Origin: an uncultured Lachnospiraceae bacterium
GTDB taxonomy: Bacteria; Bacillota; Clostridia; Oscillospirales; CAG-272
DNA length: 64,000 bases
Direction: 5' to 3'
NCBI GenBank assembly: GCA_964461635.1
Contig: CAYWVC010000001.1
Location: 627-64,626 of the forward strand
Below, piece after piece: positions 2,841 through 51,750 of the stretch (within the stretch, counting starts at the first letter, position 1; every line of letters begins with the position of its first letter). Position numbers and translations under genes: made by a program. The notes under the pieces were generated by a model. That model was given only the letters and a program-made list of their open reading frames with translations, was not told the origin of the DNA and did no database searches.

Positions 2841-4595
2841 ATGGATAACATTACAGTTACGATTAACGGCAAAGAATATGAGGTTGCCGCCGGTGTGACG
2901 GTCCTTGAGGCCGCCAGAGCGGCAAACATCAACATCCCGACTCTTTGCTATTTGAAGGATATCAACGAGATCGGCGCGTGCCGTATGTGCGTGGTCGAGG
3001 TATCCGAGGGCGGAAAGCCCTTCAGAATGGTCACGGCGTGCGTTTATCCCGTGTCCAACGGTATGGTCATTAAGACCGATTCGCCGAAGATCAACGAGTC
3101 AAGAAAGCTCAACCTTGAGCTGCTTCTTTCCAACCATAATCAGGATTGCCTGTCCTGCGTGCGCTCTACCACCTGCGAGCTTCAGAAGCTTTGCCGCGAT
3201 TACGGCGTTTCAAGCAGCAGATTCGGCGGTGCGAAGACCGAGACACACACCGACTATTCGTCCGCGGCAATTATGCGCGATAATTCCAAGTGCATTCTTT
3301 GTCGTCGTTGCGTTGCGGCGTGTAAGACTATGCAGGATATCGGCGTTATAGGCGCAAATAACCGTGGATTCGATACCGAGATAGGGTGCGCATTCGAGAT
3401 GAAGCTTGCCGATACCGCTTGTGTAAATTGCGGTCAGTGCATCGTTGCGTGCCCGACCGGTGCGCTTCATGAGAAGGATCAGACCGCAGAGGTGTTTGAG
3501 GCACTTGCCGATCCCGATAAGAAGGTCTACCTTTGCACGGCGCCCTCGGTACGTGCGACGTTGGGCGAATGCTTCGGCTATGCACCCGGCACCGACGTTG
3601 AGGGTAAGATGGTCGCGGCCGCCAAGCGCCTCGGCTTTGACGGCGTGTTCGATATGAACTTTACCGCCGACCTTACGATTATGGAGGAGGGCTACGAGCT
3701 CATCAGCCGTATAAAGGAAAACAAGAATCTTCCTTTGATCACCTCCTGCTCGCCCGGTTGGGTCAAGTATTGTGAGCATTATTTCCCGGAATTTACCGAT
3801 AATCTTTCGACCTGCAAGTCTCCTCAGCAGATGTTCGGCGCGGTGATGAAGACCTATTTCGCAGAGAAGAACGGTATTGATCCGGCAGACATTTACTTCG
3901 TGTCCGCCATTCCTTGTACCGCGAAGAAGTTTGAGGTCAGACGCGAGCACGAATGTGCCGCGGGTGAGGGCATCTACGACGTGGACGTTGCGATCACTAC
4001 CCGCGAGCTCGGCAGAATGATCGAGAAGGCAGGCATCGACTTTAAGGCTCTGGACGACGAGCAGTTTGACGATCCGTTCAGCATCGGCTCCGGTGCGGGT
4101 GCCATCTTCGGCGCGACCGGCGGAGTTATGGAGGCGGCTCTTCGTACTGCCGCAGAGGTCTTGACCGGCAAAGAGCTCAAGAAGGTCGACTTCAGTGAGG
4201 TTCGCGGTAATGCCGCCATCAAGCTTGCGACCTACGATCTCGGCGGTCTGACCGTCAAGGTTGCCGTTGCCAGCGGAACGAAGAACGCCAAAGAGCTTCT
4301 GAATAAGATCAAGTCGGGCGAGATCGAGGCACAGTTTGTCGAGATTATGTGTTGCCCGGGCGGATGCGTAAACGGCGGCGGTCAGCCGACTCAGCCCGCT
4401 TACGTGCGTAACAACACCGATCTTCAGGGACTTCGCGCTGCGGTGCTTTATAATGCCGATGCCAATAAGCTTCAGTACAGAAAGTCGCACGAGAATCCCC
4501 GTATCAAGCAGATCTACGAGGAATTCTTCGGTGAGCCCAACAGCCACAAAGCGCACGAGATACTTCACACCTCGTACGTTAAGCGTGGCGTTTGA
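2841..4595 (+). CDS. hydA: [FeFe]-hydrogenase catalytic subunit (HydA), with a non-canonical L1 motif
   Basis: 584 aa. N-terminal 2Fe-2S (CYLKDINEIGACRMC), HNQDCLSCVRSTTC, two ferredoxin-type CxxCxxCxxxC motifs. H-domain motifs are TSCSPGW, IPCTAKKFE and EIMCCPGGCVNGGGQP. Confidence 0.9.
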   Translation: MDNITVTINGKEYEVAAGVTVLEAARAANINIPTLCYLKDINEIGACRMCVVEVSEGGKPFRMVTACVYPVSNGMVIKTDSPKINESRKLNLELLLSNHNQDCLSCVRSTTCELQKLCRDYGVSSSRFGGAKTETHTDYSSAAIMRDNSKCILCRRCVAACKTMQDIGVIGANNRGFDTEIGCAFEMKLADTACVNCGQCIVACPTGALHEKDQTAEVFEALADPDKKVYLCTAPSVRATLGECFGYAPGTDVEGKMVAAAKRLGFDGVFDMNFTADLTIMEEGYELISRIKENKNLPLITSCSPGWVKYCEHYFPEFTDNLSTCKSPQQMFGAVMKTYFAEKNGIDPADIYFVSAIPCTAKKFEVRREHECAAGEGIYDVDVAITTRELGRMIEKAGIDFKALDDEQFDDPFSIGSGAGAIFGATGGVMEAALRTAAEVLTGKELKKVDFSEVRGNAAIKLATYDLGGLTVKVAVASGTKNAKELLNKIKSGEIEAQFVEIMCCPGGCVNGGGQPTQPAYVRNNTDLQGLRAAVLYNADANKLQYRKSHENPRIKQIYEEFFGEPNSHKAHEILHTSYVKRGV

Positions 4596-11800: not shown

Positions 11801-12325
11801 TTATATTCCGTAGCTTCCGGTTATCGGATCTTCAAAAATTCCGAGCTGCGGGGGTATGAAGGTAAATACTATAAACGAGACGGCAATGAGACAAAGCACC
11901 GCAAATGGGGCGATCCGCGTTCTGAGGTCCGCCGTGCCGTGACGGAAACGCCGGGCCTCGTAATAATATTCAGCAGCGGCGGCGATGAAGAATATTGCGA
12001 TATTGACCCAATCGGGCGATCTCCCTATCACGCCGTTGTACGTGTAGAAAATGACCGGTATTAAGGTCAGACCGAGAACGGATCCGCTGAGCTTTATGCC
12101 CCAATAAGACGGTACGTCCTTGAAGAAAAAGCTTTGTACAATAGCATAGATGAAAGTGGGAAAGAATAAAAGCTTCATATGTTCCCACGTGGATTCGTTT
12201 ACCCCCGAAAACGGGGCGAGCAATATGCAATTTCCGGTCCATTCGTATAAAAAGTGCAATAGTGTTCCGACTAACGAGGTCGTTGCAAACCCCATAAGCT
12301 GCCAAAGTCCTATAGATTTTTTCAT
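11801..12325 (-). CDS. Small polytopic membrane protein, family not confidently recognised
   Basis: 174 aa, about 5 hydrophobic helices (LMGFATTSLVGTLLHFLY..., LLFFPTFIYAIV...). Confidence 0.6.
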   Translation of the reverse strand: MKKSIGLWQLMGFATTSLVGTLLHFLYEWTGNCILLAPFSGVNESTWEHMKLLFFPTFIYAIVQSFFFKDVPSYWGIKLSGSVLGLTLIPVIFYTYNGVIGRSPDWVNIAIFFIAAAAEYYYEARRFRHGTADLRTRIAPFAVLCLIAVSFIVFTFIPPQLGIFEDPITGSYGI

Positions 12326-18480: not shown

Positions 18481-19209
18481 ATGATACTTGATTTGATAAG
18501 TGCCCTGAGAACGGGCGATACCGAATATGCCAAAATGCTTCTGATCGTGTTCCTTATGTGGTTGCCGATCATATTGCTGTCGCTGTCCTTTCACGAGGCA
18601 TCGCACGCTTTTATGGCGTATAAGCTTGGCGATCCGACGGCGCGGAACTTCGGTCGGGTCACGCTGAATCCCGCAAAGCACCTTGACCCCATTGGCTTTA
18701 TCGCGATGCTCGTTATGGGATTCGGTTGGGCAAAGCCGTGTCCCGTGAACACGAGAAATTTCAAAAAGCCGCGTGTCGGAATGGCGCTTACCGCGCTGGC
18801 GGGACCCGTGTCCAATCTGATACTTGCCCTGTGCTTCACCGTTCTGATGACAGTTGCGAACGTGATTACGGCCGTTTTCGGTCTGTGGGAGACCGCGGCA
18901 ATGATCTATGTCTATTATTTTCTGCGCGCCGGTATATACCTTAATGTCTCGTTGGCGATATTCAATTTTATTCCGGTCCCTCCGCTTGACGGATCCAGAA
19001 TACTCGGATTGATACTTCCGACCAAGGCTTACTATTGGTTCTTAAAGTACGAGCGATATATCGGAATAGCCTTTGCCGGAATTGTGATCGTCCTCAGCCA
19101 ATTTGGAATCTCTATTGTAGACGGCATCGTCACTCCGGTAACCGATATGCTTGAGACGCTGGCGTGGTTGCCGGCAAGCGTTATATACGCGTTACTATGG
19201 GCGAGTTAA
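18481..19209 (+). CDS. Site-2 protease family (peptidase M50) membrane metalloprotease
   Basis: 242 aa, multi-TM. HEASHAF zinc motif and a downstream FNFIPVPPLDG motif. Confidence 0.85.
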   Translation: MILDLISALRTGDTEYAKMLLIVFLMWLPIILLSLSFHEASHAFMAYKLGDPTARNFGRVTLNPAKHLDPIGFIAMLVMGFGWAKPCPVNTRNFKKPRVGMALTALAGPVSNLILALCFTVLMTVANVITAVFGLWETAAMIYVYYFLRAGIYLNVSLAIFNFIPVPPLDGSRILGLILPTKAYYWFLKYERYIGIAFAGIVIVLSQFGISIVDGIVTPVTDMLETLAWLPASVIYALLWAS

Positions 19210-24717: not shown

Positions 24718-26436
24718 TTAATATTTTTTCTTAACAACGACGAATGCCGCGCCGCCTATGAGGACCGCAACAACCGCCGCAACCGTGGTTATGCCACCGC
24801 ATCCGCCGGGGTTATTGTCACTCGCCGGTGCATTGGTGGACGGAGCGGAGGTGTTGTTCGGAACCTTCGTAGTAGTGTTCGTTTGCGGAGTATTCGTGTT
24901 TGTGGGTTCATCATCCGCCACTGTCGTATCGGGGTTATCGGCTTTATACAGGGCGTAAAGCCGATCGAATTCCTCGGCGATCAAAGCTTTGACTGCGCTC
25001 TGAATTCCCGAAAGCTTGACGGCTGCTTCGTAGTTTCCGACCGTCGGGATATCTCCCGCATTGGCGACCCAAGCGCCGCCCGTAATGCCGGCATCGTAGT
25101 TCGTTGCAACGAATTCGGTCATATAATCCATCATAGCTTTTCCGTTGGTGTACGCTTCCATCGCCGTAATCTCTTCGTGATAGTAATTGGCATACAAAAC
25201 AGAGTCCTCAATAGCGGCGGCGATCTCGCCCTCTGCCGTTGTGCCGAGGTTCATATTGACAAGAGCCGCATCGCCTTGCATTTCAATTAAGGAGAGCTTC
25301 TTAAAAAGTGTAGTATCCACGTTTTGAGCGTCGGTGCCTATGAAGTGCTCATCAAGCGCATAGCAATCCGCAAATGTCATAGCGTTTTTGCAGTGCCCTG
25401 CGATCGAACCGTAGAAGGTATCCTCGTCAGAGGTAGTCTCACTTGTTTGGGCATCCTTTGTAAATTTGATCGTAGCGGTGGTGAAGCAGTTCGTTATGGA
25501 TCCGCCTGCAACGTGTCCGGCTCTTCCGGATATACCTCCGGCGAAGTTACTTGACTCTTTTGCCACGTCCGCACGGCTGACGATAGTGCCGGTGGAGTAG
25601 CAATATTTAATATGCGTAGGGGCACTGCTTGCTCCTTGACATCCTATAATTCCGCCGAGCAATACCGCTTTTTTCGCGCTTGTCTCTCTTTCGGGGGCGA
25701 TCGAAATATCCGAGTTACTTCCGCAGTATGATATCGTTGTGCCGCCCGCAACTCCCACGATACCGCCGGCAAAAATGTCCTTGCTTTCAACGTTAGTCGT
25801 AATGACGATGGTTGAATCGGAAACGCATCCGGTGATCTCGTTTGTGCCGGTATCTAATCTTCCGACAATGCCTCCGACCGCAAATCCGTCGATGTTGTCG
25901 ATCTTTGTGCGGCAGTTAATGAACTTGCAGTTATTATAAGCATATCCCGCTATACCGCCGACGTAGGTTCCGCTGCACAGCGATCCGGTAACTTTGAGGT
26001 TCTTTATAGTGCATTCGCTGACACCGCCGAAAAGACCGCCGTTGTCTTGAGTGCTCGACGGAACGGTGCTGACCTTGAGTCCCGAAACGGTGTGATTGTC
26101 ACCGTCGAATACGCCCGTAAAGGGTTTGTCCTTGACCCTGTATCCGATCGGTGTCCATTCGTTATCTTGAAGGTTGATATCCGTAGTTAGCTTGTAATAT
26201 ACGGGCGAGCTGTCGGCGTTTGTTATGTCGTTATAGTTTTTGGAAAGATAAGCAAGCTCGGTAGCCGAACCGATCAGATAAGGCGATGCCTCGGTGCCTT
26301 CGCCGCCGCTGAAGCCGGACGCGATCGACTGTCCGTCCCACGAGTCGGCAGAAGCGGGGATAGCGAGAAGCATAGGAACGGAAAGTGCTACGAGAGCCGC
26401 GGCAAGTATTATTGCTGTTATATTCTTGATCTTCAT
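24718..26436 (-). CDS. GLUG-motif repeat cell-surface protein with a C-terminal PGGC-TM-KKKY tail
   Basis: 572 aa. Signal peptide. Repeated GG(I/L)(A/V/I)G...I.NC units (GGIAGYAYNNCKFINC, GGIVGRL, GGIVGVAGG, GGIIGC, GGISGRAG). T/N/P-rich linker and a C-terminal TM. Confidence 0.8.
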   Translation of the reverse strand: MKIKNITAIILAAALVALSVPMLLAIPASADSWDGQSIASGFSGGEGTEASPYLIGSATELAYLSKNYNDITNADSSPVYYKLTTDINLQDNEWTPIGYRVKDKPFTGVFDGDNHTVSGLKVSTVPSSTQDNGGLFGGVSECTIKNLKVTGSLCSGTYVGGIAGYAYNNCKFINCRTKIDNIDGFAVGGIVGRLDTGTNEITGCVSDSTIVITTNVESKDIFAGGIVGVAGGTTISYCGSNSDISIAPERETSAKKAVLLGGIIGCQGASSAPTHIKYCYSTGTIVSRADVAKESSNFAGGISGRAGHVAGGSITNCFTTATIKFTKDAQTSETTSDEDTFYGSIAGHCKNAMTFADCYALDEHFIGTDAQNVDTTLFKKLSLIEMQGDAALVNMNLGTTAEGEIAAAIEDSVLYANYYHEEITAMEAYTNGKAMMDYMTEFVATNYDAGITGGAWVANAGDIPTVGNYEAAVKLSGIQSAVKALIAEEFDRLYALYKADNPDTTVADDEPTNTNTPQTNTTTKVPNNTSAPSTNAPASDNNPGGCGGITTVAAVVAVLIGGAAFVVVKKKY

Positions 26437-26442
26437 TGTCTT

Positions 26443-27936
26443 TTAACCTCCCAACGCGGTATTGATTGCTTCAATATCTTTTTCGATTATTGCTCTGCTG
26501 CGGTTAAGGTCACCCTTCCACGTGTTATTTCCACTCAGAACGACCTCACGGAAATGGTTTGCGGTATAATAATCGCAGATTTTGAATATGCGTCCCACCT
26601 CAAACACTATGTTGCTCTTTATCATATCGAACATCTTTCCGGTGGTCGTATCGGGCGCATACTTGACCTTCATAACACGCTCGTAAAGCTGGGGAGTTAC
26701 GTTTCTGTAGGATTCCGAGGCAAGGCACTCAAGCACGGCGGCCGCATCGTTCTTGCGATCTTCCGATATGTAGCTGGGAACGCTGTACAGCGTGAAAGGA
26801 TGTCCGACGTTGGTATAATAGGGATCCTTTGAATTGAGCTTGGGATTCGGAACTACTCCGTAATCAAACTGAATGTACTTTTTTTCGGTAGCACTGTCTT
26901 TGCCGTAGATGATGAAAACTCTGTCTGTGGTGAACAAAGCGCGCTCGTCAAAGAAGATGTCGCGGATAGACGTTTTAGTGCTTGTTTGCACGTCGTCGGT
27001 TGCAAAGAACCTGATGAATGAATCGCAGAGATCGGTTATCGCAGCTCTTGAATAGCTGTCGCTGAGGCTAAGCACTCCGTTGTCGTTGTCTACGGCAAAA
27101 ATACCGGCAGAGGTCTGATATGCATCGATATTTACCGTGTAAAGAACACAACCGTAGACCTCATTACCGCCGTTTACCGCGTACTTTCCTTCGCACATCT
27201 CAAAGAATTTGTCGAAGGTCCACTTGTTATCAAGAACAAGCGCCATCGGATCCTCAAGATTGTACGCCGCTATCTGATCTTTGTTGTAGAACGTAGCCTC
27301 CATCATCCACAGCAGGTTGGTGGAGATATCTCCCGAGCAGAAGTAGATACTGTCGCCTATGGTCATCTCGCTCACGAGCGAATCCGGCCACCACGGTTTG
27401 TCGAGATTGATATTTTCGAGCGCGGAAAGGTCGGTCGTAAGACCGCGTGTCGCAAGGGTCGCGGCGGTACGGCTGTAGCTTGCTACGATATCGTATTCGC
27501 CGTCTGCTTTGTCGGTTTCGACCTTCTGAATGAACGAGGTCATATTTCCGCTATCACCGAGCTCGGGTATAAAATTGAAATCGACCCCAAGCCTGCTCTC
27601 AACGTTATAGTTGCGGGTGATAAGCGCGTCGTTGATCTCGTCCGCATTGGGAGTTTCGCTCGCGGGGAAGAACTCCATGTTCGTAGCGTCCGACCAATAC
27701 AGCATATTGATCTTTTTGTTGATCTTAAGCGTGTCGGGAAGATCGTCGAGCTCGTAACCGTTTGCGTCGACGTTTCCGTTTTGATCGGTAATGTTGCCCG
27801 AGCCGCTGTCGGCGGGATCGGTTGGGTCAGTAGTGCTTGCGGTTGTATCACCGCCGTTGCCGGTGTTCGTACAGGCAATGAGCGACGATGCCAAAAGAAT
27901 CAAGCACAAAATGGTCGCGATAATGCGAAGCTTCAT
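26443..27936 (-). CDS. Large extracellular solute-binding lipoprotein (ABC SBP family 1-like), with no adjacent permeases
   Basis: About 497 aa from MKLRII. Lipobox LIAC. The overall pattern resembles ~500-aa sugar/oligosaccharide SBPs. Its last codons GGAGGT-TAA form the SD for the GLUG gene. Confidence 0.7.
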   Translation of the reverse strand: MKLRIIATILCLILLASSLIACTNTGNGGDTTASTTDPTDPADSGSGNITDQNGNVDANGYELDDLPDTLKINKKINMLYWSDATNMEFFPASETPNADEINDALITRNYNVESRLGVDFNFIPELGDSGNMTSFIQKVETDKADGEYDIVASYSRTAATLATRGLTTDLSALENINLDKPWWPDSLVSEMTIGDSIYFCSGDISTNLLWMMEATFYNKDQIAAYNLEDPMALVLDNKWTFDKFFEMCEGKYAVNGGNEVYGCVLYTVNIDAYQTSAGIFAVDNDNGVLSLSDSYSRAAITDLCDSFIRFFATDDVQTSTKTSIRDIFFDERALFTTDRVFIIYGKDSATEKKYIQFDYGVVPNPKLNSKDPYYTNVGHPFTLYSVPSYISEDRKNDAAAVLECLASESYRNVTPQLYERVMKVKYAPDTTTGKMFDMIKSNIVFEVGRIFKICDYYTANHFREVVLSGNNTWKGDLNRSRAIIEKDIEAINTALGG

Positions 27937-28046
27937 TATTATCAACACCTCCAAATGTTATAAAGACAGTGTAACAAATAATGCAGTTTTTGTCAAGTCA
28001 AAACGAAAAATTTTGAGCAGTTTGACGAAAATTTTTGTTTGATTTT

Positions 28047-29594
28047 TCAATCGTTACGTTTAAGAATCCCGCGAAGCCAAATTCTGTCGTCTCGGCCGAT
28101 CGTTCCGGTAGCCGTTAAAAGCAGTAAATACACGGTGACCGCAGTGACAATATGAACTGTAGCCGCAAACCATCCCGGAATTGACAACGGTATGAAACGG
28201 AAGATAAGATTGGATATGCAGGCGGCACCTATCGCACAGAACAGGGGCTTGATCACCCATTGCGTTATATTGGGCTTCATACCGGATGAGCTCAGCAGTT
28301 TAACGGCACTTGCGGAAAAGTTCAGCACCTCCATAGCGAATACTATGAATATATATCCGTTTATCCCGAATCTCGGAACGAGGAGCTTAACAAGCACGAC
28401 CGACAGTGCCGCGTCGATTATGTTTACGTTCATCGAATACAACTGATGACCGAGTCCCTTTAACATCGCATCGGTCGTGCTGTCAAGGTACATAACCGGA
28501 ATCAGCGGTGCAAGGAGCTTTATGTAGGTCGCTGCCTCCGCGCTGTTATAAAGCAGCATACCGAGCTCCTCGGCAAAGCAGATGAGTATCCCCGACACCC
28601 CTATGGCAAATATCAGCGAAAATTGCCATACCCGCCCGGCAATATACCGTACCCGATTTCGGTTGCCCCGCGCCAGGCATTCGGACAGCTCCGGAATAGT
28701 CATACCGGCAAACGACGTAATGAGGGCGGCGGGGAAAAGGATGACGGGAAATGCCATACTTTGAAAGGTTCCGTACGCGGCAAGTGAGCCCTCCTTGGAG
28801 GCTCCGCTCTTTCGCAGTCCGTCGGGAATCAGGATGTGCTCGACAGTCAGAAGTCCCGACCGTACGTACGTTGAGAACGCGACGGGCAAGGCGATCCCGA
28901 GCAGGTGCCTTGTGACCTTATTTTCATTCTCGGCTCGTCCGTGGGATTTTATGAACCTTTTGCGATCGCGCACGTAAAGCACGGTCATAAGGAAAAAGGA
29001 AAATATCTCCGACACCGTGCCCCCGAGAACAAGGGCTATGCAGGCATTTTCTATTCCCTCGGGCAGGATCGCAACGAGCAGGGCAGAGGTGACGGCAATC
29101 TTTATCGCCTGTTCAATGACCTGCGATGCGGCATTCTTTGCCACACGCCTGACGGCGGTAAAATATCCGTTCAGCGCCGAGCATATCGCAATCAGCGGAA
29201 GCGAGATCGACATAAGACGCAGTGGAACGAGCGTTCTGGCATCATCCAACCAACGCGAGCTGATAACGGGAGCGAGAAAAAACAGCAACGCCGCGGATAG
29301 GGTGCCGAAAAAAACTGCGTAGCCGACGCACCTTCGCATTGAAGCAACCGCAAGGGCTTCGTCGTCGTGCCCGAGAGCCTCGGCCACCAATCGTGTCGTT
29401 GCAAGCGATATTCCGGACGTAGCCAGAGTCAATGCGGAGCCGTATACGCCGGATATAAGCGAAAAGAGTCCGAGAGCCTCGGCTCCTACCTTGTTGGATA
29501 TCCAGACGTTGAACGCCAACGCCACTCCCCGCATAAAAAGCGAGGTTAAGGTGAGCAGGACGGCGTTGTATACGTAACGTTTCAGCCTTTTCAT
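28047..29594 (-). CDS. MOP-superfamily flippase (SpoVB / polysaccharide biosynthesis protein-like)
   Basis: 515 aa, about 14 TM. N-terminus MKRLKRYVYNAVLLTLTSLFMRGVALAFNVWISNKVGAEALG is typical of SpoVB-like proteins. Confidence 0.8.
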   Translation of the reverse strand: MKRLKRYVYNAVLLTLTSLFMRGVALAFNVWISNKVGAEALGLFSLISGVYGSALTLATSGISLATTRLVAEALGHDDEALAVASMRRCVGYAVFFGTLSAALLFFLAPVISSRWLDDARTLVPLRLMSISLPLIAICSALNGYFTAVRRVAKNAASQVIEQAIKIAVTSALLVAILPEGIENACIALVLGGTVSEIFSFFLMTVLYVRDRKRFIKSHGRAENENKVTRHLLGIALPVAFSTYVRSGLLTVEHILIPDGLRKSGASKEGSLAAYGTFQSMAFPVILFPAALITSFAGMTIPELSECLARGNRNRVRYIAGRVWQFSLIFAIGVSGILICFAEELGMLLYNSAEAATYIKLLAPLIPVMYLDSTTDAMLKGLGHQLYSMNVNIIDAALSVVLVKLLVPRFGINGYIFIVFAMEVLNFSASAVKLLSSSGMKPNITQWVIKPLFCAIGAACISNLIFRFIPLSIPGWFAATVHIVTAVTVYLLLLTATGTIGRDDRIWLRGILKRND

Positions 29595-35897: not shown

Positions 35898-36392
35898 ATG
35901 GTATGTAAATTTTGCGGCAAAGAGATCGAGGACGGCTCAAAATTCTGTCCCGATTGCGGTAAGCCGTTGATCGAGGAGGAGATCACACCTCCCGAGCCGG
36001 CAACCGATTCAAAGCAATCCGATGCCCCGGCAGAAAAGAAAAAGGAAGGCGAATGGAACGTATTGTCTATCGTTGCATTCTGCATCACGATGGGCGCTGT
36101 GCTTCAGATACTCTCGTTCGGCGGCTTGACCTACATAGCAACGCTCGTGCTCGGCATAATTGCGCTCAATCAGATCAAGAAGGATCCGTCACAGCAGGGC
36201 AAGGGCTTTGCCGTTGCAACCGTTATAATTTCTGCCGTTTCTCTCGGCATTGCATTGATCGGCGGAATCGTTGTCGCTGTCCTGAGTATTTTGGGAATGG
36301 CTATACCTGCGTTTTTCGAATTGCTTTTCGGCGGACTTTTCAATGCCTTCTTTGACGAGCTTATTGGTGAAATAATGATGTTCATCATCTGA
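35898..36392 (+). CDS. Zinc-ribbon plus DUF4190-like membrane protein
   Basis: 164 aa. CKFCGKEIEDGSKFCPDCG zinc ribbon, Pro/Glu linker, two or three TM helices. Confidence 0.75.
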   Translation: MVCKFCGKEIEDGSKFCPDCGKPLIEEEITPPEPATDSKQSDAPAEKKKEGEWNVLSIVAFCITMGAVLQILSFGGLTYIATLVLGIIALNQIKKDPSQQGKGFAVATVIISAVSLGIALIGGIVVAVLSILGMAIPAFFELLFGGLFNAFFDELIGEIMMFII

Positions 36393-36414
36393 GCCGGAGA
36401 GGGGTAAGATAACA

Positions 36415-36939
36415 ATGCTTTGCTCGAATTGTAACTCGTCGGTCAGCGACGGTTGCGTATTTTGCCCGATCTGCGGATCAAAGCTTGAGCTTAAGGAGGA
36501 TGCTCCCGCAGTTCCCGAAGCTGCCGAGCCGACGCCCCAAACTGCAACGGACAGCGCTCAACAGACTGTTGAGCGGACAGAATGTCACGCGGCTCCGGTT
36601 GCACCGACCCCTTCATCGGATTATTCCACCCGCCCCGTTAACGCTATCGCGATAACCGGTTTTATTTTAAGCTTTTTCTCGATGGGAACCGGCGCACCGT
36701 TCTTTCCCGCGGCGCTTACGCTGTGCATCGTCGGATTGGTGATCGGCATTAAATATTGGAACGGAAGCGGCAAGGGCTTTGCCATAGCAGGTATTGTGAT
36801 TTCCGTTGCGCTTGCGTTGCTGTTTTGGATCGGCATTATCTTTTTCGTACTGCTCTGCATAATAATGGAGGCAGAGGGGCCCGCAAACGTTGATGGCGGC
36901 GTTCAGATCGCCGCCGCCCTGATCGGTTACTTCGCTTGA
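36415..36939 (+). CDS. Zinc-ribbon plus DUF4190-like membrane protein (tandem paralogue)
   Basis: 174 aa. CSNCNSSVSDGCVFCPICG, linker, TM helices. Same architecture as the preceding gene. Confidence 0.75.
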   Translation: MLCSNCNSSVSDGCVFCPICGSKLELKEDAPAVPEAAEPTPQTATDSAQQTVERTECHAAPVAPTPSSDYSTRPVNAIAITGFILSFFSMGTGAPFFPAALTLCIVGLVIGIKYWNGSGKGFAIAGIVISVALALLFWIGIIFFVLLCIIMEAEGPANVDGGVQIAAALIGYFA

Positions 36940-38471: not shown

Positions 38472-38517
38472 AAAAGAAGCATAGGCGAGACTTTAAAAGT
38501 CTCGCCTATGCTTCTTT
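38472..38517. terminator. Bidirectional terminator (46-nt perfect palindrome)
   Basis: aaaagaagcataggcgagacttt|aaagtctcgcctatgcttctttt. It abuts the stop of the minus-strand gene at 38517. Confidence 0.8.
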
Positions 38518-39092
38518 TAGCGCTTACAGCCGTTTTTACGGGATGAGGCAGAGCCCTTCATCCCAAGCTTGTCCCGCAACCTCAATATGTAAAGAACTAT
38601 TATTCTTGAAAGCATAAGATCGTACAGAAAAAACGTAAAATTCCCGCAGGCGTAGAGCACAACGTATGCCCACGCGTTGCTAAGCCCCGGAATAAGTGAC
38701 AGGTCGACGTTAGGAAGGAAGAAGTGACAAAATATCACGATTACCGTCAGCACAACGTTGAAGAACCCGAATTTCCCGATCAGCGCGGGGATTTTGCGCA
38801 GCCTCTCAAACCTTCGCTTAACCGCGGGATAATATCCGGCAAGCAGATATATGACCGCCGGGAGCTTATTCGGCAAAATAAGGAATGCAATGGCGGAGGT
38901 CACGCCATAAGTGAGCCAAGGCCAATACTTTCCGTACTCGGTTACCGGTATTACGACAAGGATTGAGGCAAACATTGCCGCAGTCATATCGAGCACGTCG
39001 ATTATAGCTCCTAACCACAGGATCGTTACTCCGAGTGCCGATAGGGTTGCACAAACGGCAATGCACTTCGTTTTATCGGAGATACGGCTCAT
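38517..39092 (-). CDS. Polytopic membrane protein (last gene of the foldase/J-protein operon)
   Basis: 191 aa, 5-6 hydrophobic helices. ATGA overlap with the upstream J-protein gene. Confidence 0.65.
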
Positions 39093-39730
39093 CGACAGCC
39101 ACCGAAAATATTGCAGCAGCAGTTAACGCACGCAAGTGTTGAACAGATACTGCAAAGTGAGCAACCGTTACGGGTCGTTGAATAATACGTTCTGTTGTAT
39201 TGCTGAGTATGCGCCTTGAGCCCGTCACGGGCATTTTGATATTCCTGATTGTAGGGGTCCAAGGCACAGGCTCGGTCAAAAAAGCTCTGTGCATCTACGT
39301 AATGTCCACGTGCAACAGCCACCGCGCCGCTGAGAAAGAACCATTCGGCATCGCGCTTCTCTGCGGGTACAGTGGAAAGCAGGTATTCGGCGCGCTGGAT
39401 ATCACGGCTGTTGATAGCTACACGGATAGCGCGGTATAGCTCGTTCCCGGTGCCACCCTCGCTGTCCACTCGCGGTCCCCTTGAATAGCCGTACGCCGAC
39501 GAGGATGACGAGGATGATGCGGATGAAGAGGATTTTTTGCCCGAACGTTCGTTTTGAATATCCTCGTACGCGGCATTGATCTCCTTCATTTTCTCGGTAG
39601 CCATATCCGCGAGATCGGAATCCCTGTATTTATCGGGGTGATATTTGCGCGCCAGATTGCGGTACGCCTGCTTTACCTCGTCGTCCGATGCTTCCCGTGA
39701 GACTCCGAGTATCTTGTATGGATCATTCAT
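39089..39730 (-). CDS. J-domain protein with a Ser-rich linker, TPR-like region and Cys-rich C-terminal tail
   Basis: 213 aa. DPYKILGV...[13 protein letters not shown] (HPD motif). [12 protein letters not shown] linker. C-terminus [25 protein letters not shown]. Confidence 0.85.
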
Positions 39731-40607
39731 ACGAGCTTACTTTTCCTCCTGTCTTTCCAAATAGAACACGCTGTGCGGCATCCGGCATTCCCAAATGGAT
39801 AATGTTGTCGAGCAGCCCGAATATCTCCTTCTGCTCATCCGACCTTTCAAAGAGGTCGAGCGTGGCATCAAGCTTCATAAGCTCGGCGGTCAGCGCGTTG
39901 AACACGTCGCTTTTCCGTTCATCATTGAATGCACCGTCGGGGTAAGTCAGCAAAAAGGGATTGAAGCGCCCCGCCTTTCGATCTTCCTCAAAATCGTCTG
40001 CCGCGTCGATAACGTACAACCACCTGCCAAGGTGCATCCCCGCCGAGCGTGTCAGGCGTTCAGCCCCTCCGCTCAGCCCGTAGGAGAGCAGATCTGCCAA
40101 TGCCTCGCCGAAAATATCCGCCGGCATATCAACCGAGGGCTCGCGCCTTGCCTCAAGCTCTGATAACTTTGACAGAGAGCTCCTCAGCGCCTCGCTTGCG
40201 CCGGGAAGTGCTTCGGACGCACGTTTTTCCATACCGGACAGGGAAGTGCGAAGGAGCTGAGCCTTGTGCTTTTTTGATCCTTTTTCATCCACCGTATCGT
40301 CGTACGCTTTCTCGTATGAGAGCATTATTCCGGCTCTCGCGGCAAAGTCCAACGACGCGCAATCGGTTGCGGTAAGCAGCTTCTTCGACGGATGCGCAGG
40401 GCAACGCTCTTCGGTGACCTTCGGAGTTTCTCCGCAGGCTGCCATACGCAAAAGTGCCGCGAACACGAAGTCATAATTCAGCGTTAAGCGGGATGAGCAC
40501 CCGGTGCATTGCCCGAGCGAGCGGCACAAGCCGCAGTATACGGCTTTATAATAATCGTTTTCCCGAACCTTCAGCTCGGGGACAAAGGGTCTTACGTAAC
40601 CAAACAT
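39723..40607 (-). CDS. DUF5685 family protein
   Basis: 294 aa. [49 protein letters not shown] matches the DUF5685 N-terminus as I recall it. Confidence 0.7.
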
Positions 40608-40608
40608 T

Positions 40609-41838
40609 TTATCGCCTTTTTTTGTTTTTCAAAGTTATAATGATAACGGTAACTGCGATCCCCACTGCGCCGATTGCTACCGATACACCGATTATTATAA
40701 GGTTCCCGTCGGTGTTGCTTTGCGCCCCGGGCACCGTCGGATCGTATGTGATCCTGTCCGTGGTCTCCGTACCGCTATCTTCGATAAGGTACGCATAAAT
40801 ATCACGGTCGGTCGTTACCTCCGATTCCGCAAGCACCGTTCTGATGGCGTAATCCTTCATCAGCGCGATACGGCAATAGTCGGCACCGCCGAAATAGGCT
40901 TCAAGCTCCTCAACACTGACACCGGCAAGCTTGGCTTGAGCCTCTGCTTCGGAAGAGTAGAGCGCGTCGTCAAAGCGTATTCCGCGCTGATACAGGGCGG
41001 CGGCGAGAGCAATATCCTCTCTGATCGTTATACGGGCAAGAGCCTCAAGCTCCTCGTCGGTGTTCTCGGTGCTTGAATTTGCCTTTGTCCAACGGACGTA
41101 AAAATCGATTTGATCTTGAGGAAACGGCTTGTCAATAAGCTTTGTGCGCACGACAACCTCATCTGAAACGATACCGTAAAGAGTCGTGTCGTATGAATTC
41201 AGACTCTCAATGGCAAGATATTCGGCGATGAAGTGCTTAAGCTCTTCAACGCTTGAGTACTTGCCCTGAGTATAGACGTAGACGTCATTGTTTGTAAAGC
41301 GGTAGTCGCAGATATACTTGACCGTGATCTTATATTCGACCGTTTTGCCCGCCAGCTCCGGCTTATCCTCGTGATCCGCCGGATACTTGACCTTATTTGT
41401 GACCGTGACTCCGGGCATAATTCCATACAGTCCGATGTCAAAACCGTCGATAAATCCGCTATCGTTTGACAGAGTAAGCAATGCGTTCTTTGCGCTGTCA
41501 ACCTTTTCTCCGTCAATGCTGCCGACGTAATCTATGCAAAGAACGTCTCCGCCCGCGGTCGTGCGGGTCGTCAGCTCGCCGTAATATCCTCCGACCTTCG
41601 CCATTTCTACGTAATATTCGTTGACCGTCTCGTCGGTGGGCCACACGTTACATTCGATTTTAAGACCTTTGGTATTTGTATTATCAAGATCCACGTATGC
41701 GGAGATGTCGAAATCCTCGGCAAAGTAATCTATCGCTCCCGATACGGCAGTGCCGTCGGCATAAGAGTGAATGGCAAGCGGGAAGAGCAAGGTCAGCAGA
41801 ATACAGGCGGCAATTAACGATTTAATAACTTTTTTCAT
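40609..41838 (-). CDS. Exported trigger-factor-like FKBP-type PPIase with a C-terminal membrane anchor
   Basis: About 409 aa from ATG 41838. Signal peptide. GDVLCIDYVGSIDGEKV...GFIDGFDIGLYGIMPGVTV...LAGKTVEYKITV resembles the trigger-factor PPIase domain. C-terminal TM plus KNKKRR. Confidence 0.75.
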   Translation of the reverse strand: MKKVIKSLIAACILLTLLFPLAIHSYADGTAVSGAIDYFAEDFDISAYVDLDNTNTKGLKIECNVWPTDETVNEYYVEMAKVGGYYGELTTRTTAGGDVLCIDYVGSIDGEKVDSAKNALLTLSNDSGFIDGFDIGLYGIMPGVTVTNKVKYPADHEDKPELAGKTVEYKITVKYICDYRFTNNDVYVYTQGKYSSVEELKHFIAEYLAIESLNSYDTTLYGIVSDEVVVRTKLIDKPFPQDQIDFYVRWTKANSSTENTDEELEALARITIREDIALAAALYQRGIRFDDALYSSEAEAQAKLAGVSVEELEAYFGGADYCRIALMKDYAIRTVLAESEVTTDRDIYAYLIEDSGTETTDRITYDPTVPGAQSNTDGNLIIIGVSVAIGAVGIAVTVIIITLKNKKRR

Positions 41839-43091
41839 CAATTACTTTCCGTGCTGTTCGTCGTATCGGTATCAGATGGCGCGGCATCTGTTGACGGAGC
41901 CTCGGTATCGGTTGATTCCTCTAACAGATGTGAATATTGATCATAATCCGTCGTGATCTTGACGGAGGCGCGCAACGCTTTCATAGCCTTATCCTTCAGA
42001 ACGTAAAGCCTCATATACGTATCCCCAAGGTATTCGATAAGCTCCTCGGACGAATCGTATTCCCAAAGCTCGGCGAGCTCGGCAAGCTCAGCGGCATATT
42101 CGCTGTCGCTCAACGTCATACCGACGGATTTGGCGTAGGCAACGAGAACAAGGTCGCGCTTGACCTCCTCCTTGGCGTCTTCGGTGAGTTCCGACTCGGT
42201 CATTCCGAGCGCCTCAAGATACTGCTCAAACGACGTTATACCGTAGTAGTACTGAAACAGGACCTGATTGCTTTCATAATAGTTTTTGGCGGCGTTGTAG
42301 TTGGCATAGTAGTAATATTCTATTTGAGCCTGCGGCAGCTCCTTGAGCTCGGAGCGCTCAACGACAAGCTTGATTATCGCTTCTTCAACGTCGTCATCGA
42401 AATCGTTAAGATTGGCTTTTATAAGACTGTTCTTGGAGTATTCGCGGAACGCCTCGACTGTGGTATAATCGCCGTTGGTATACTCTGTGACGGTTTTGTC
42501 TGTGAAGCCGTAGGTCTTTATTATCCCCTGCACGGTAATGGCAAACGTTGCATTCTTGCCGGCAAGCGTTTCGGAATAATTATCGGGGAAGGTCACGTCT
42601 GTATTGACCGTTGTTCCGGGCATTATTCCGTAAAGATCCTTATCAAAGCCTTCGATATATCCCGTGCTTTCGGTAAGAGAAATAGTCGATCCTTCTGCAG
42701 TACCGCCGTCAAAGGCAACTCCGTCCATAGTGCCGACAAAATCAATTACGAGCACGTCACCCGCTTGTGTGGCTCTGTCGGTGATAAGCTCCGTATAGTA
42801 ACCGTAATTCTTTGCGATATTCAGCAGTACCTCGTCGATCACGTCATCTCCGACAGAGACGTTTTGGGTAACTTCCAGACCGTCACAGCTCCCAAGCACA
42901 ATGTATTGGCTAATATCGGCGTTGATCAGATCCATAACAGGGTGATCGCTGTCGACCGACGGGTTGTTGGCGGAACCCGAGCCGGAGGTGGTGTCATCGG
43001 GCTTGGTAAATTCAATATTCCCGCAGGAGGCAAGAAAAGTCGTGCATATCAAAAGCGCGGCAATCAGCAAGGTAAACGTTCTTTTTTTCAT
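41838..43091 (-). CDS. Trigger-factor-like FKBP-type PPIase lipoprotein
   Basis: 417 aa. Lipobox FLASC. GDVLVIDFVGTMDGVAFDGG...GYIEGFDKDLYGIMPGTTV...LAGKNATFAITV, plus a trigger-factor C-domain-like helical region. Confidence 0.78.
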   Translation of the reverse strand: MKKRTFTLLIAALLICTTFLASCGNIEFTKPDDTTSGSGSANNPSVDSDHPVMDLINADISQYIVLGSCDGLEVTQNVSVGDDVIDEVLLNIAKNYGYYTELITDRATQAGDVLVIDFVGTMDGVAFDGGTAEGSTISLTESTGYIEGFDKDLYGIMPGTTVNTDVTFPDNYSETLAGKNATFAITVQGIIKTYGFTDKTVTEYTNGDYTTVEAFREYSKNSLIKANLNDFDDDVEEAIIKLVVERSELKELPQAQIEYYYYANYNAAKNYYESNQVLFQYYYGITSFEQYLEALGMTESELTEDAKEEVKRDLVLVAYAKSVGMTLSDSEYAAELAELAELWEYDSSEELIEYLGDTYMRLYVLKDKAMKALRASVKITTDYDQYSHLLEESTDTEAPSTDAAPSDTDTTNSTESN

Positions 43092-48971: not shown

Positions 48972-50983
48972 CTTATACGTTCACCGAGAGGCGTGTCGTC
49001 GGCAAGGAATATAACACGCACCTTTTCCTCGCCGGAGGCAAGGATCATACCGTTACTCTCTATCCCGCACAGCGTCGCCGGACGAAGATTTACGACAAGT
49101 ATCACTTTCTTCCCGACAAGCTCTTCGGGTTTGTAAAACTTGGCGATTCCCGATACGACCTGACGCGTCTCATAGCCGAGATCGACCTTAAGCTTAAGAA
49201 GCTTTTTCGCTTTCGGTACGGCTTCGCATTCAAGGATAGCGGCAGAACGAAGCTCAACCTTCATAAAATCGTCAATGCCGATCAGCGCACATCCCTCGGG
49301 CTTTTCTGTCTTGGACTCCGATTTCTGCACCGCTGCGGCAGCTTCTTTTTCGGCGTTGATCTCCGCCATCACCTTTTTTTCGTCCATACGTGCGAAGAGT
49401 ACCTTGGAATCTCCCGTGATCGTTCCCGCCTTCAGCTGACCGAAGACCGCAAAATCATCAAAGAGCAGATATCCCGCATTGGCACGTCCGATCTCATTTG
49501 CGCTCTCGCTCAGAGCTTTCAGCTCGGCTTCCGCGTTCAGCTCACGCAAAATCTCCTCGGCAGTCTCGGGAACAAAGGGAAGCAGAAGAACGGCAGAGAA
49601 GCGTATAGTCTCAAGCAGCTCGTAAAGCACAGTGCCGAGGCGTTCACGCTTCGATTCGTCCTTTGCCAATACCCACGGCGCGGTTTCGTCGATGTATTTG
49701 TTGGCGCGGCTGAGCAACGCCATAATTGCCGAAGTCGCGTCGGCGATCCGATAGGAATCCATCAGCGAGCAGACTTTTTCAAGCGTAATCTTGCAAGTGT
49801 TTTTAAGCTCCTCGTCGATCGGCTCGGGCGCGATAGGTGCCTGCACGACCTTGTCAAAGTATTTTTTCTGCATATCAAGGGTACGCTTGACAAGGTTTCC
49901 GAGGTTATTGACAAGATCGGTGTTAAAGCGGTTTATAACGTTTTCATAGGTTATGCTCCCGTCATTTCCGTAAGGCATCTCGGAGAGCGCGTAATATCTC
50001 ACGCCGTCAACCGTGAAGCGTTCGGCAAGCGCATCTGCGTATATGACGTTTCCTTTCGATTTCGACATCTTGTCGGTTCCGAAATTAAACCAAGGGTGTC
50101 CGAAGATCTTCTTCGGCAACGGGAGATCCAGCGCCATCAGGAAGATGGGCCAATATATCGTATGGAAGCGAAGTATATCCTTGCCTATAATGTGCACGTC
50201 GGCGGGCCAATTCTTTTTGAAAAGCTCCGACTGCCCGTCGTAGGACTTATCGGGATCGTAGCCTATCGCGGTAATATAGTTCGCCAGCGCATCAAGCCAG
50301 ACGTATATAACGTGACGCTCGTCGAAGGTCGGCACACCCCAAGTAAACGAGGTTCGCGACACGCAAAGATCCTGAAGCCCGCCTTCAACCTTAAGGAAGT
50401 TGTTTATCATTTCCTTTTTACGCGACTCGGGCTCGATAAAATCGGGATGCTCCTCAATGTAGGCAAGAAGTCGGTCGGCGTACTTGTTCATCTTGAAGAA
50501 ATACGCTTCTTCGCTCGCTCTTTGTACGGGGGCTCCGCAATCGGGGCATTTTCCGTCGACCGCCTGCGTATCGGTGAAGAAGGACTCGCACGGTGTGCAA
50601 TACCAGCCCTCGTAACAGCCCTTGTATATATCTCCTTGCTCAAAAAAGCGTTTGAAGATCTTCTCGACCGCCTTCACGTGACCTTCATCGGTGGTGCGTA
50701 TGAAATGATCGTAGCTCGTGTTCATCTTGTCCCATATGCCGCGCACCTCGCCCGAGACCGCGTCAACGTATTTTTGCGGCGTGATCCCCGCATCGTTTGC
50801 GTAGTTTTCTATTTTCTGCCCGTGCTCATCGGTTCCCGTGCAGAAAAATACGTCATACCCGCGGGAGCGTTTGTATCTTGCCAGCGCATCGGTCATTATT
50901 ACCTCGTACGTATTACCGAAGTGCGGCTTGCGCGAGGCGTATGCTATCGCAGTGGTTATATAAAATTTTTCCTTGTTGTTCAT
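48968..50983 (-). CDS. metG: Methionine--tRNA ligase with a C-terminal tRNA-binding (EMAP-like) domain
   Basis: About 671 aa from ATG 50983 (SD ggagga). Class I signatures PHFGNTYE and KMSKSKGN, Zn knuckle CTPC...CPDCG, C-terminal GKKVILVVNLRPATLCGIESNGMILA. The track ORF is extended upstream to 51106. Confidence 0.92.
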   Translation of the reverse strand: MNNKEKFYITTAIAYASRKPHFGNTYEVIMTDALARYKRSRGYDVFFCTGTDEHGQKIENYANDAGITPQKYVDAVSGEVRGIWDKMNTSYDHFIRTTDEGHVKAVEKIFKRFFEQGDIYKGCYEGWYCTPCESFFTDTQAVDGKCPDCGAPVQRASEEAYFFKMNKYADRLLAYIEEHPDFIEPESRKKEMINNFLKVEGGLQDLCVSRTSFTWGVPTFDERHVIYVWLDALANYITAIGYDPDKSYDGQSELFKKNWPADVHIIGKDILRFHTIYWPIFLMALDLPLPKKIFGHPWFNFGTDKMSKSKGNVIYADALAERFTVDGVRYYALSEMPYGNDGSITYENVINRFNTDLVNNLGNLVKRTLDMQKKYFDKVVQAPIAPEPIDEELKNTCKITLEKVCSLMDSYRIADATSAIMALLSRANKYIDETAPWVLAKDESKRERLGTVLYELLETIRFSAVLLLPFVPETAEEILRELNAEAELKALSESANEIGRANAGYLLFDDFAVFGQLKAGTITGDSKVLFARMDEKKVMAEINAEKEAAAAVQKSESKTEKPEGCALIGIDDFMKVELRSAAILECEAVPKAKKLLKLKVDLGYETRQVVSGIAKFYKPEELVGKKVILVVNLRPATLCGIESNGMILASGEEKVRVIFLADDTPLGERIR

Positions 50984-51750
50984 CTTTGTTTTTCCTCCGT
51001 TGAAAATAGAATGTGATCCGAATAACAGATCTCTGTAACAGTTAAGTAATGTAATGTGAAGATCATAAAAAGCACCCCGACCGTGCAGAGCGAAAGCAGT
51101 ACCCACGGCAAAGAACCGAGGATCAGCAAAAGCATCTGCGGGAAATTCTTAAATGCAAGCCTTACAGACAGCGCAAAGCATCTGAAGGGGTTTTTATCGT
51201 GAGATAAGACGAATACGCTTGCCAGCGGAAGCACCGTTACAAGCAATATTATGCAGAGTATCGCGGCGGCAACCGCAATCGCCATCACCAACAATACGCC
51301 TGTGATGCCGTCCCCAAGCCGAGAGATCACCTCCGCAGCTATTGCCGCAGGCACGAGCGGCAAAGCCGAAAGAAGCGCGACGCAACAGCTTTTCATAAAA
51401 AGCCCGAACGAAGAATAATACCGAAAAAGCTCCGCCAAGCCGATACATTCGCCTCCCGCCGCCTTTGCCGCCATACGGTGATAACCCGTAAACAGCGGTG
51501 CCGTGAAGATGACCGATAGCAATATAAACGCCGGATCGCAAAGTCGGCGGACAGTTTCCTCTGCCGACGGATCGGAGATCAGAATTACCGTGTCCGCGAC
51601 CGCTGCGACGATGATATACGTTGCTATTACCGCAAGGGCGTATATCATAACGGCGAAGATCAACGTCAGCCTTGCGTTGCCGTCGGAGAGTGCTTCCTTT
51701 GCAGCGACTCTTGCAAGCTTTATCGGTGATGACGGCTTCTTTTCTTTCAA
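50980..51750 (-). CDS. Polytopic membrane protein, function unknown
   Basis: 256 aa. TTG start with SD gggggtgag. 5-6 TM helices. Overlaps the nagA stop and the metG start. Confidence 0.6.
   Translation of the reverse strand: MKEKKPSSPIKLARVAAKEALSDGNARLTLIFAVMIYALAVIATYIIVAAVADTVILISDPSAEETVRRLCDPAFILLSVIFTAPLFTGYHRMAAKAAGGECIGLAELFRYYSSFGLFMKSCCVALLSALPLVPAAIAAEVISRLGDGITGVLLVMAIAVAAAILCIILLVTVLPLASVFVLSHDKNPFRCFALSVRLAFKNFPQMLLLILGSLPWVLLSLCTVGVLFMIFTLHYLTVTEICYSDHILFSTEEKQR

Follow-up and report, generated by a model that had tools for sequence, protein, structure and literature searches.

The DNA considered here is a window of 64 kb (64,000 nucleotides, the whole stretch analysed) from an uncultured Lachnospiraceae bacterium, and the element in question is a C-terminal tail, hereafter the Gly-Cys tail, carried by two of the secreted proteins that it encodes. 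Carrier 1, at 24718–26436 on the minus strand, is a GLUG-repeat protein of 572 amino acids (aa), its GLUG repeats being recognised by Pfam at E = 1.1e-11. Carrier 2, at 53904–55409 on the plus strand, is a putative peptidoglycan hydrolase of 501 aa to which Pfam assigns CHAP, SH3_3 and Flg_new (InlB-type) repeats. Both begin with a predicted Sec signal peptide: that of carrier 1 is MKIKNITAIILAAALVALSVPMLLAIPASA (26347–26436, minus), which would be cleaved before DS and which, read by eye from the translation alone, has an n-region, an h-region and an ASA cleavage motif, and that of carrier 2, likewise predicted from the translation, is MKKRIIGFLVGFAILLPLAALSASA (53904–53978, plus), followed by LT. 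Carrier 1 ends ...DNNPGGC-GGITTVAAVVAVLIGGAAFVVV-KKKY (tail codons 24721–24813, stop codon 24718–24720, minus; a longer reading of the same end is ...TNAPASDNNPGGC-GGITTVAAVVAVLIGGAAFVVV-KKKY). Here the signature NPGGC (24799–24813, Cys codon 24799–24801) is followed by a hydrophobic segment of 22 aa (24733–24798), for which a hydropathy scan places a transmembrane (TM) helix from residue 543, and by the basic, presumptively cytoplasmic end KKKY (24721–24732), read from the translation. Carrier 2 ends ...EPNEDQSPGGC-ASFAADYCLLSLILAVGTAVIL-RKRV (55314–55406, plus), with the signature SPGGC at 55314–55328 (Cys codon 55326–55328), a hydrophobic segment of 22 aa that contains one Asp and a second Cys at 55329–55394 (TM from residue 473 in the same scan), and the corresponding basic end RKRV at 55395–55406. 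The ORF (open reading frame) translations confirm the layout given in a preliminary description of this DNA, i.e., PGGC, 22 near-chargeless residues (apart from the Asp of copy 2) and four residues with a basic cluster. The two proteins are otherwise unrelated, as was also proposed there, in that Pfam finds no domain common to the two full-length sequences.

A six-frame translation of the window has three PGGC in ORFs of 60 aa or more; besides those of the two tails there is an internal one, in the CCPGGC of the ORF at 2841–4595. From the composition of 58 window proteins the probability of PGGC at a given position is 4.6e-6, and 0.09 occurrences are expected in 19,320 residues against the three observed. 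With such a low probability per position, it is not by chance that two of the window's three proteins with a C-terminal anchor have PGGC at the same offset. The third of these, an FKBP-type peptidyl-prolyl isomerase (PPIase; 40609–41841), ends in a TM segment and KNKKRR and has no Cys, in keeping with the earlier remark that its basic tail lacks PGGC. At the DNA level the PGGC codons form an identical 14-mer in both tails (24798–24811 and 55316–55329), and a near-identical 14-mer, CCC(C/G)GGCGGATGCG, is found at all three PGGC sites of the window (3 matches versus 0.02 expected), including the hydrogenase-type CCPGGC at 4355–4368, which is one base off. A DNA-level repeat or a shared cassette for the tails was rejected because the CCPGGC site has the same codons except for that base; the simplest explanation is codon preference.

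Comparison with relatives showed that the conserved core is [EK]-x-G-C-[GA]-[SAG] and not PGGC, which the preliminary description had taken as the motif. The Pro is lost already in a GLUG orthologue that is 91% identical to carrier 1 (NSGGC), and orthologues of about 50% identity have (S/A)GCAGCGG, with two nearby Cys residues; the Gly-Cys tail is kept at both levels of identity. Distant GLUG-family proteins carry KKGGCSSS, SEGGCGS, KKGCGG and similar signatures, and relatives of the CHAP family have mostly E(S/G)GCG(A/S). G-C is invariant in tail alignments A1, A2 and A4, across GLUG and CHAP homologues, and the small residues that follow it are retained as well. A logo of 139 distinct tails, which like those of the profile below were collected with a pattern requiring [GSAN]-C and therefore owe their invariance partly to construction, gives E/K at position -3, G/K/S at -2, G at -1 (135 of 139), then the Cys, G/A at +1, S/A/G at +2, S/V/A at +3 and I/V at +4. 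The distance from the Cys to the first basic residue is 17–25 residues among relatives, and the spacing of exactly 22, earlier regarded as fixed, is therefore a coincidence of this genome; the C-terminal cytoplasmic end varies from 3 to 15 residues. The domain can be described as four parts: a disordered linker that is acidic or rich in Thr and Pro, the signature, an uncharged helix of approximately 17–25 residues that is rich in Gly, Ala and Ser and often contains Pro, and a short terminus, usually KKKED or KRKEN.

Homologues elsewhere carry the tail, and so do many unrelated proteins. The Gly-Cys signature is present in 16 of 31 GLUG homologues with a C-terminal helix, the rest having a plain helix, and in 49 of 114 TM-tailed CHAP homologues as assigned by a pattern classifier among the best 120 matches; a plain TM tail without Cys was found in 65 of the 120 CHAP homologues listed. 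Other GLUG relatives end in dockerins, T9SS (type IX secretion system) tails or LPXTG-like signals. Such exchange of the tail with other anchoring modules within families is what a modular domain for anchoring or sorting would be expected to show.

A 34-position hidden Markov model (HMM) was built from 43 tails (alignment A2). Within the homologue set, which overlaps the tails used to train the profile, Gly-Cys tails scored 19–44 bits, and 10 bits was the maximum for TM tails that lack the Gly-Cys-small signature. A HMMER search of 1.84 billion representative proteins gave 65 matches at E ≤ 1e-3, and 64 of these lie at the extreme C-terminus, a location that the profile itself cannot encode. 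The matched tails are uniform and consist of an acidic/Thr/Pro linker, (E/K)(E/K/G)GCG(S/G)x(I/V), about 20 uncharged residues and KKKED. The sole match that is not C-terminal, P0250, is a Gly/Thr-rich repeat protein of 2011 aa with twelve internal QQNGCGSSAGSP repeats; these have the form ...QQQNGCGSSAGSP(L/V)WVT(T/S)QD(Y/F)G(T/P)C..., the protein has an Arg-rich C-terminal helix of its own, and it is unrelated to the Clostridial tail. Two other searches added little: a word-indexed protein search with the tail profile returned six short proteins only, and a degenerate DNA pattern run on metagenome contigs gave 58 matches, nearly all of them chance matches in environmental samples, with three real tails, in L120 and L134. 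The cluster membership of one protein, P0331, is spurious, as it is encoded on a eukaryotic contig with Anoctamin genes.

The Pfam domains found on carriers are diverse and comprise CHB_HEX_C (chitobiase-C)/Fn3_assoc, FIVAR, GDPD, CBM6/CBM35, GH25 lysozyme, GLUG and CHAP; a BNR sialidase is a carrier in the related locus L089 (13492–15348), and several carriers have no Pfam domain at all. Full-length carriers that were inspected by eye have ordinary predicted N-terminal signal peptides. More than one carrier is encoded per genome fragment: two in the 64-kb window, three in 15.8 kb of L090, two in tandem in L083 and two in L089. The named sources are nearly all uncultured gut metagenome-assembled genomes (MAGs) assigned to Clostridia, Eubacteriales, Oscillospiraceae, 'Lachnospiraceae', Ruminococcus, Anaerotruncus or Clostridium, from humans (Hadza), ruminants and horses, with one Clostridiales MAG that has no stated source; the one taxonomic exception is a Candidatus Enteromonas MAG. 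Neither of the two window proteins has an exact counterpart in the index of public contigs, and the nearest species-representative relative of the window is L002, whose CHAP protein is 65% identical. Judged from these comparisons, the tails are a real, conserved and modular C-terminal domain of surface proteins of gut Clostridia.

Two observations on the loci that encode carriers concern other modes of anchoring. The carriers of L090 (3027–5802, 11504–14251) are two adjacent paralogues and a 915-aa FIVAR protein, located beside rnpA, yidC and jag, and an SLH-domain protein is encoded on the same contig, where S-layer-homology anchoring co-exists with the Gly-Cys tail. At L084 9612–9974 and L085 1743–2105 an ORF of 120 aa with a weak dockerin match lies directly upstream of a Gly-Cys-tailed Cys-rich repeat protein of 686 aa, a hint that the same organisms use both cohesin-dockerin and Gly-Cys-tail anchoring.

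In a scan against NCBIfam release 20.0 (June 2026) at E ≤ 10 that covered both proteins, their tails, 11 tails of homologues and 10 further tails, no model reached its cutoff on any tail; Pfam, run on the two full-length carriers, likewise placed nothing on the tail. The Gly-Cys tail matches no curated NCBIfam or Pfam model and hence no sorting domain described there. Sub-threshold NCBIfam matches were to LPXTG_anchor, Rumino_NPXTG, Loki-, PGF-, PEF- and PTPA-CTERM, MYXO-CTERM-anchored families, MYXO-CTERM and Synerg-CTERM, and those to generic anchors for which coordinates are given align only with the helix and basic part of the models. MYXO-CTERM (TIGR03901) reached E = 0.037 at best, on 1 of 13 tails and below cutoff, and the MYXO-CTERM-anchored families gave matches down to E = 0.003, far under their cutoffs. 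Synerg-CTERM (TIGR04564) matched 1 of the 13 tails at E = 0.027, below cutoff, and none of the 10 further tails. LPXTG_anchor scored at most 15.2 bits on Gly-Cys tails against a cutoff of 15.9, over model positions 11–34 and never over the LPXTG positions, PGF-CTERM matched weakly and with the helix part only, and the GlyGly-CTERM model matched no tail scanned. As a positive control, three NPxTG tails encoded by neighbours of Gly-Cys-tailed CHAP genes in related MAGs scored 19–22.2 bits with TIGR01167 (cutoff 15.9) over positions 3–34, signature included, and a fourth control tail, a GD-type variant, was just at the cutoff. As genuine NPxTG tails reach the cutoff, the scan is able to detect a short sorting domain, and the Gly-Cys tail is therefore a different signal. 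Nor does the tail fit the classical lipoprotein lipobox L-[AS]-[GA]-C, its Cys preceding a C-terminal helix (inverted topology); N-terminal lipoboxes are found on other window proteins (e.g., 26443–27954, LIAC; 41838–43091, LASC). PGAP names the carriers 'hypothetical protein' or after their other domains, and full-text searches of the available literature library gave no paper describing such a tail in Firmicutes or Clostridia. A survey of Cys-containing sorting signals covers MYXO-, JDVT-, Synerg- and CGP-CTERM and makes no mention of Firmicutes or Clostridia (Haft, 2023; 10.1101/2023.06.07.544157).

Sortase-type signals are encoded next door. In many related MAGs the gene just upstream of a Gly-Cys-tailed CHAP homologue has the ending NP(D/E)TGDNAIFF...KKREN (L018 7260–8498, L020 6772–8358, L024 8742–9719, L027 5356–6660, L046 8351–9712 and others, all minus). 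Given the scores of the four control tails, adjacent surface-protein genes carry sortase-type and Gly-Cys-type tails, and the related lineages use sortase signals too.

Among described systems the Gly-Cys tail most resembles the Cys-dependent sorting signals that have so far been described only in Gram-negative bacteria and archaea. Like MYXO-CTERM, the substrate of the myxosortase MrtX (Haft, 2023; Guo, Haft and Wall, 2025; PMC11980579), it follows a disordered linker and is tripartite, with an invariant Cys flanked by Gly, a TM helix and a basic cluster. Both are found on unrelated secreted proteins, several per genome fragment, and the GCGC of MYXO-CTERM is mirrored by the two-Cys GCAGCGG of the GLUG orthologues. 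The differences are that MYXO-CTERM belongs to Myxococcota and to surface delivery that depends on a type II secretion system (T2SS), whereas no outer membrane or T2SS step is expected in gut Clostridia (Firmicutes); that its basic cluster is Arg-rich, whereas the Gly-Cys tail is Lys-rich and then acidic (KKKED); that it has no Pro in the helix, where Pro is frequent in the Gly-Cys tail; and that it has a cognate protease, MrtX, whereas none was found for the Gly-Cys tail in the window or near carriers. Synerg-CTERM, with its enzyme MrtS, shares a Ser/Gly-rich cluster, a single invariant Cys, essentially no spacer before the helix and a Pro inside it, as in many CHAP-family tails, but is confined to Synergistales and linked to a divergent T2SS, and its motif ends abruptly at the Cys whereas the Gly-Cys tail continues with G/A and S/A/G. 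The LPXTG/NPXTG signals (TIGR01167, NF033846) have the same overall layout and the same KK(K/R)E(D/N) ending, and often occur on the neighbouring gene in related genomes; the Gly-Cys tail differs in having no LPXTG or NPXTG motif, a Cys replacing the Thr-Gly scissile site. GlyGly-CTERM with rhombosortase and PGF-CTERM with archaeosortase A are also tripartite signals whose helix is removed in favour of a lipid anchor, and Gly-Gly often precedes the Cys of Gly-Cys tails, but both signatures lack a Cys and the enzymes are confined to Proteobacteria and archaea, respectively. The eukaryotic and archaeal CAAX box resembles the tail in what is proposed below, a Cys near the C-terminus that is lipidated before a CPBP-family enzyme (Rce1) cuts just after it; it differs in having three residues after a Cys on the cytoplasmic side, compared with about 26, including a TM helix, after a presumably extracytoplasmic Cys in the Gly-Cys tail.

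It is conceivable, with a probability of roughly one half, that the tails are copies of a modular C-terminal domain on many unrelated Sec-exported proteins of uncultured gut Clostridia (Eubacteriales/Oscillospiraceae-type MAGs) and that this domain is processed in the manner of MYXO-CTERM. MrtX, a CPBP protease, removes the MYXO-CTERM tail, which requires the Cys, and works in Escherichia coli (Guo, Haft and Wall, 2025; PMC11980579); the working model for Cys tails is lipidation by an Lgt-like enzyme and then cleavage just after the Cys. By analogy, after Sec export the Gly-Cys tail would act as a stop-transfer anchor (N-out, C-in, with KKK as the positive inside) so that the invariant Cys would come to lie on the outside of the cytoplasmic membrane. 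The thiol would then be lipidated by an Lgt-like enzyme, and an intramembrane protease, with a CPBP (Rce1-like) glutamic protease as the prime candidate, would cut just after the Cys and remove the helix, leaving the mature hydrolase or adhesin held on the outer leaflet through a C-terminal lipid. The preliminary description had proposed an uncharacterised tripartite sorting signal similar to MYXO-CTERM with an invariant Cys, and as far as sequence goes this stands: the domain exists, is conserved, modular and C-terminal, is distinct from the models searched, and co-exists with sortase-type signals in related genomes. That it serves in sorting, as well as its topology, lipidation, cleavage and the identity of the enzymes, we infer from the analogy.

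Indirect support for processing comes from the composition of the tails. Pro is found in the helix core of 58% of Gly-Cys tails and 6% of plain TM tails, the mean helix hydropathy is 2.29 compared with 2.50 in plain-tailed homologues (p = 1.7e-4), and the ending [KR]2-5-[ED]-x is present in 47% of Gly-Cys tails versus 4% of plain tails; the same basic-acidic ending is seen in the sortase-type NPxTG tails of related genomes, five of five of which end in KKREN. Because of the frequent Pro, the lower hydropathy and the sortase-like ending, the Gly-Cys tails have more the look of signals that are cleaved off than of permanent anchors. It is tempting to speculate, though with somewhat less assurance than for the processing itself, that gut Clostridia possess a Cys-dependent C-terminal sorting pathway as yet without a model, parallel to sortase in the same cells, with which single-membrane bacteria would have their first myxosortase-like (lipidate, then cleave) system.

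Several points weigh against MYXO-CTERM-like processing. First, all described Cys-CTERM systems are found in diderms, where the T2SS carries the protein onward, or in archaea, and it is not obvious what a single-membrane bacterium would gain by replacing a helix with a lipid. Second, the tail scores below the cutoffs of every MYXO, Synerg, JDVT and CGP model, the invariance of its G-C is in part a product of the collecting pattern mentioned above, and its cleavage and lipidation are argued by analogy. Third, no candidate enzyme lies close by. Among 20 candidate window ORFs (multi-pass, N-terminally anchored or lipoprotein-like) Pfam and NCBIfam detected no CPBP, sortase or rhomboid, consistent with the earlier statement that the window encodes no sorting enzyme; among the Pfam-annotated neighbours of carriers in eight loci (L001, L082–L085 and L088–L090) none was found within 10 kb; and the one CPBP-like ORF that a motif scan turned up in 1.33 Mb around CHAP homologues is in L042, a locus in which no Gly-Cys tail was detected. 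The last point is weak evidence, because the enzyme genes of multi-substrate systems are as a rule not adjacent to those of their substrates: it was through profiling and not through neighbourhood that the myxosortase and Synerg-CTERM enzymes came to light.

The membrane ORFs that were found in the window instead include an M50 peptidase (18481–19209) beside scpA/scpB, a DUF6512 protein, a SpoVB-like flippase and polysaccharide deacetylases. Three membrane ORFs without an assigned role were read by eye and have no convincing CPBP motifs. An ORF of 256 aa with seven TM segments (50980–51750, minus) matches nothing in Pfam or NCBIfam and shows no convincing CPBP motifs in its sequence, and neither does the DUF6512 membrane protein (11801–12325, minus).

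The main rival to lipidation and cleavage is a plain, permanent C-terminal membrane anchor, in which the juxtamembrane Gly-Cys would serve for a disulfide or thioether link, reversible S-acylation or helix capping. The tail has everything that a stop-transfer anchor needs, a helix alone gives surface retention where there is one membrane, neither the window nor the surroundings of carriers yielded a dedicated enzyme, and the 65 CHAP homologues with a plain TM tail manage without a Cys. Such an anchor would, however, leave unexplained why G-C-[GA]-[SAG] is near-invariant across unrelated families and many MAG lineages and why the helices are weaker and rich in Pro, and the KKKED-type ending is common to sortase-cleaved tails and rare in plain anchors. 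A structural disulfide on the extracytoplasmic side is also unlikely as a general role, as far as can be judged from the anoxic gut environment. We consider this explanation unlikely, albeit the one to be taken most seriously. Rhomboid-type shedding and a non-canonical sortase are less likely than a plain anchor, because the Cys is the invariant residue and because the sortase models fail on the signature. For shedding, a general intramembrane protease acting on N-out/C-in helices, e.g., a rhomboid, would free the ectodomain in a turnover step that involves no lipid anchor. Small residues at the membrane boundary and helix-breaking Pro or Gly are typical features of rhomboid substrates. The presumed orientation of the tail, the G/A/S at its outer boundary and the Pro or Gly in its helix agree with this, and GlyGly-CTERM/rhombosortase provides a precedent; but rhomboid substrates need no Cys, yet the Cys is the one invariant residue, the GlyGly-CTERM model is unmatched by the tails, and neither the window nor the other loci examined showed a rhomboid gene, all of which makes shedding improbable. 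Still more improbable is a specialised sortase with G-G-C-G as its recognition motif, which would attach the protein to peptidoglycan. In their tripartite layout and KKKED/KKREN ending the tails agree with sortase substrates of related genomes, and LPXTG_anchor comes near its threshold on some tails, but these alignments stop short of the signature that genuine NPxTG tails align with, the Gly-Cys tails have no Thr-Gly scissile pair, and to our knowledge the sortase motifs contain no Cys. A chance resemblance of two low-complexity anchors, which might be suspected as the window holds only two copies and hydrophobic tails are alike in composition anyway, is refuted by the orthologues, which keep the signature at 50% overall identity, by the CHAP homologues, by the almost exclusively C-terminal database matches of the profile and by the composition statistics for PGGC at a fixed position.

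The GLUG-type carrier also has a recurrent neighbour. In all four regions concerned (window 26443–29594, minus; L001 5926–11770; L088 8470–11854; L089 7299–11481) a lipoprotein-like protein of about 500 aa comes before the carrier. The copy in the window has a lipobox and a weak resemblance to solute-binding proteins, and the window and L001 encode, further upstream, a SpoVB/MurJ-like flippase. A window protein matches the SpoVB model at E = 2.5e-80, below the equivalog cutoff, and is typical of Firmicutes. Relatives of the GLUG carrier are located in glycan-utilisation loci with AraC regulators, GH127, rhamnosidase, BNR sialidases and GDPD, and this suggests that the carrier and its lipoprotein-like neighbour are a surface glycan-capture pair. 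Elsewhere in the window, a run of genes on the minus strand (38517–43091) looks like a set of folding factors and consists of a trigger-factor-C/FKBP lipoprotein (41838–43091), the TM-anchored FKBP protein (40609–41841), a DUF5685 protein (39723–40607), a DnaJ/TPR protein with a Cys-rich C-terminal stretch (39089–39730) and a five-TM protein that matches no family and has no convincing CPBP motifs (38517–39092). Two small membrane proteins with an N-terminal zinc ribbon are encoded in tandem at 35898–36939 (plus), and the first also matches DUF4190.

With a curated HMM of the tail, many surface proteins now called 'hypothetical' in abundant, uncultured Clostridia of the human and ruminant gut would be re-annotated, and cell-surface enzymes such as peptidoglycan hydrolases and sialidases would be flagged along with carbohydrate-binding proteins. 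The HMM would also serve as a query for partner enzymes by phylogenetic profiling, including the Cys-lipidating enzyme of all such systems, which is still unknown. If the tails are processed as proposed, Firmicutes would have an added route of surface anchoring beside sortase, N-terminal lipoproteins and plain TM anchors, and the myxosortase (CPBP) paradigm would no longer be limited to Gram-negative bacteria and archaea but would take in bacteria with one membrane. Autolysins (CHAP, GH25), sialidases, glycan-binding proteins and GLUG adhesins of these gut Clostridia would then be held at the surface by a C-terminal lipid anchor.

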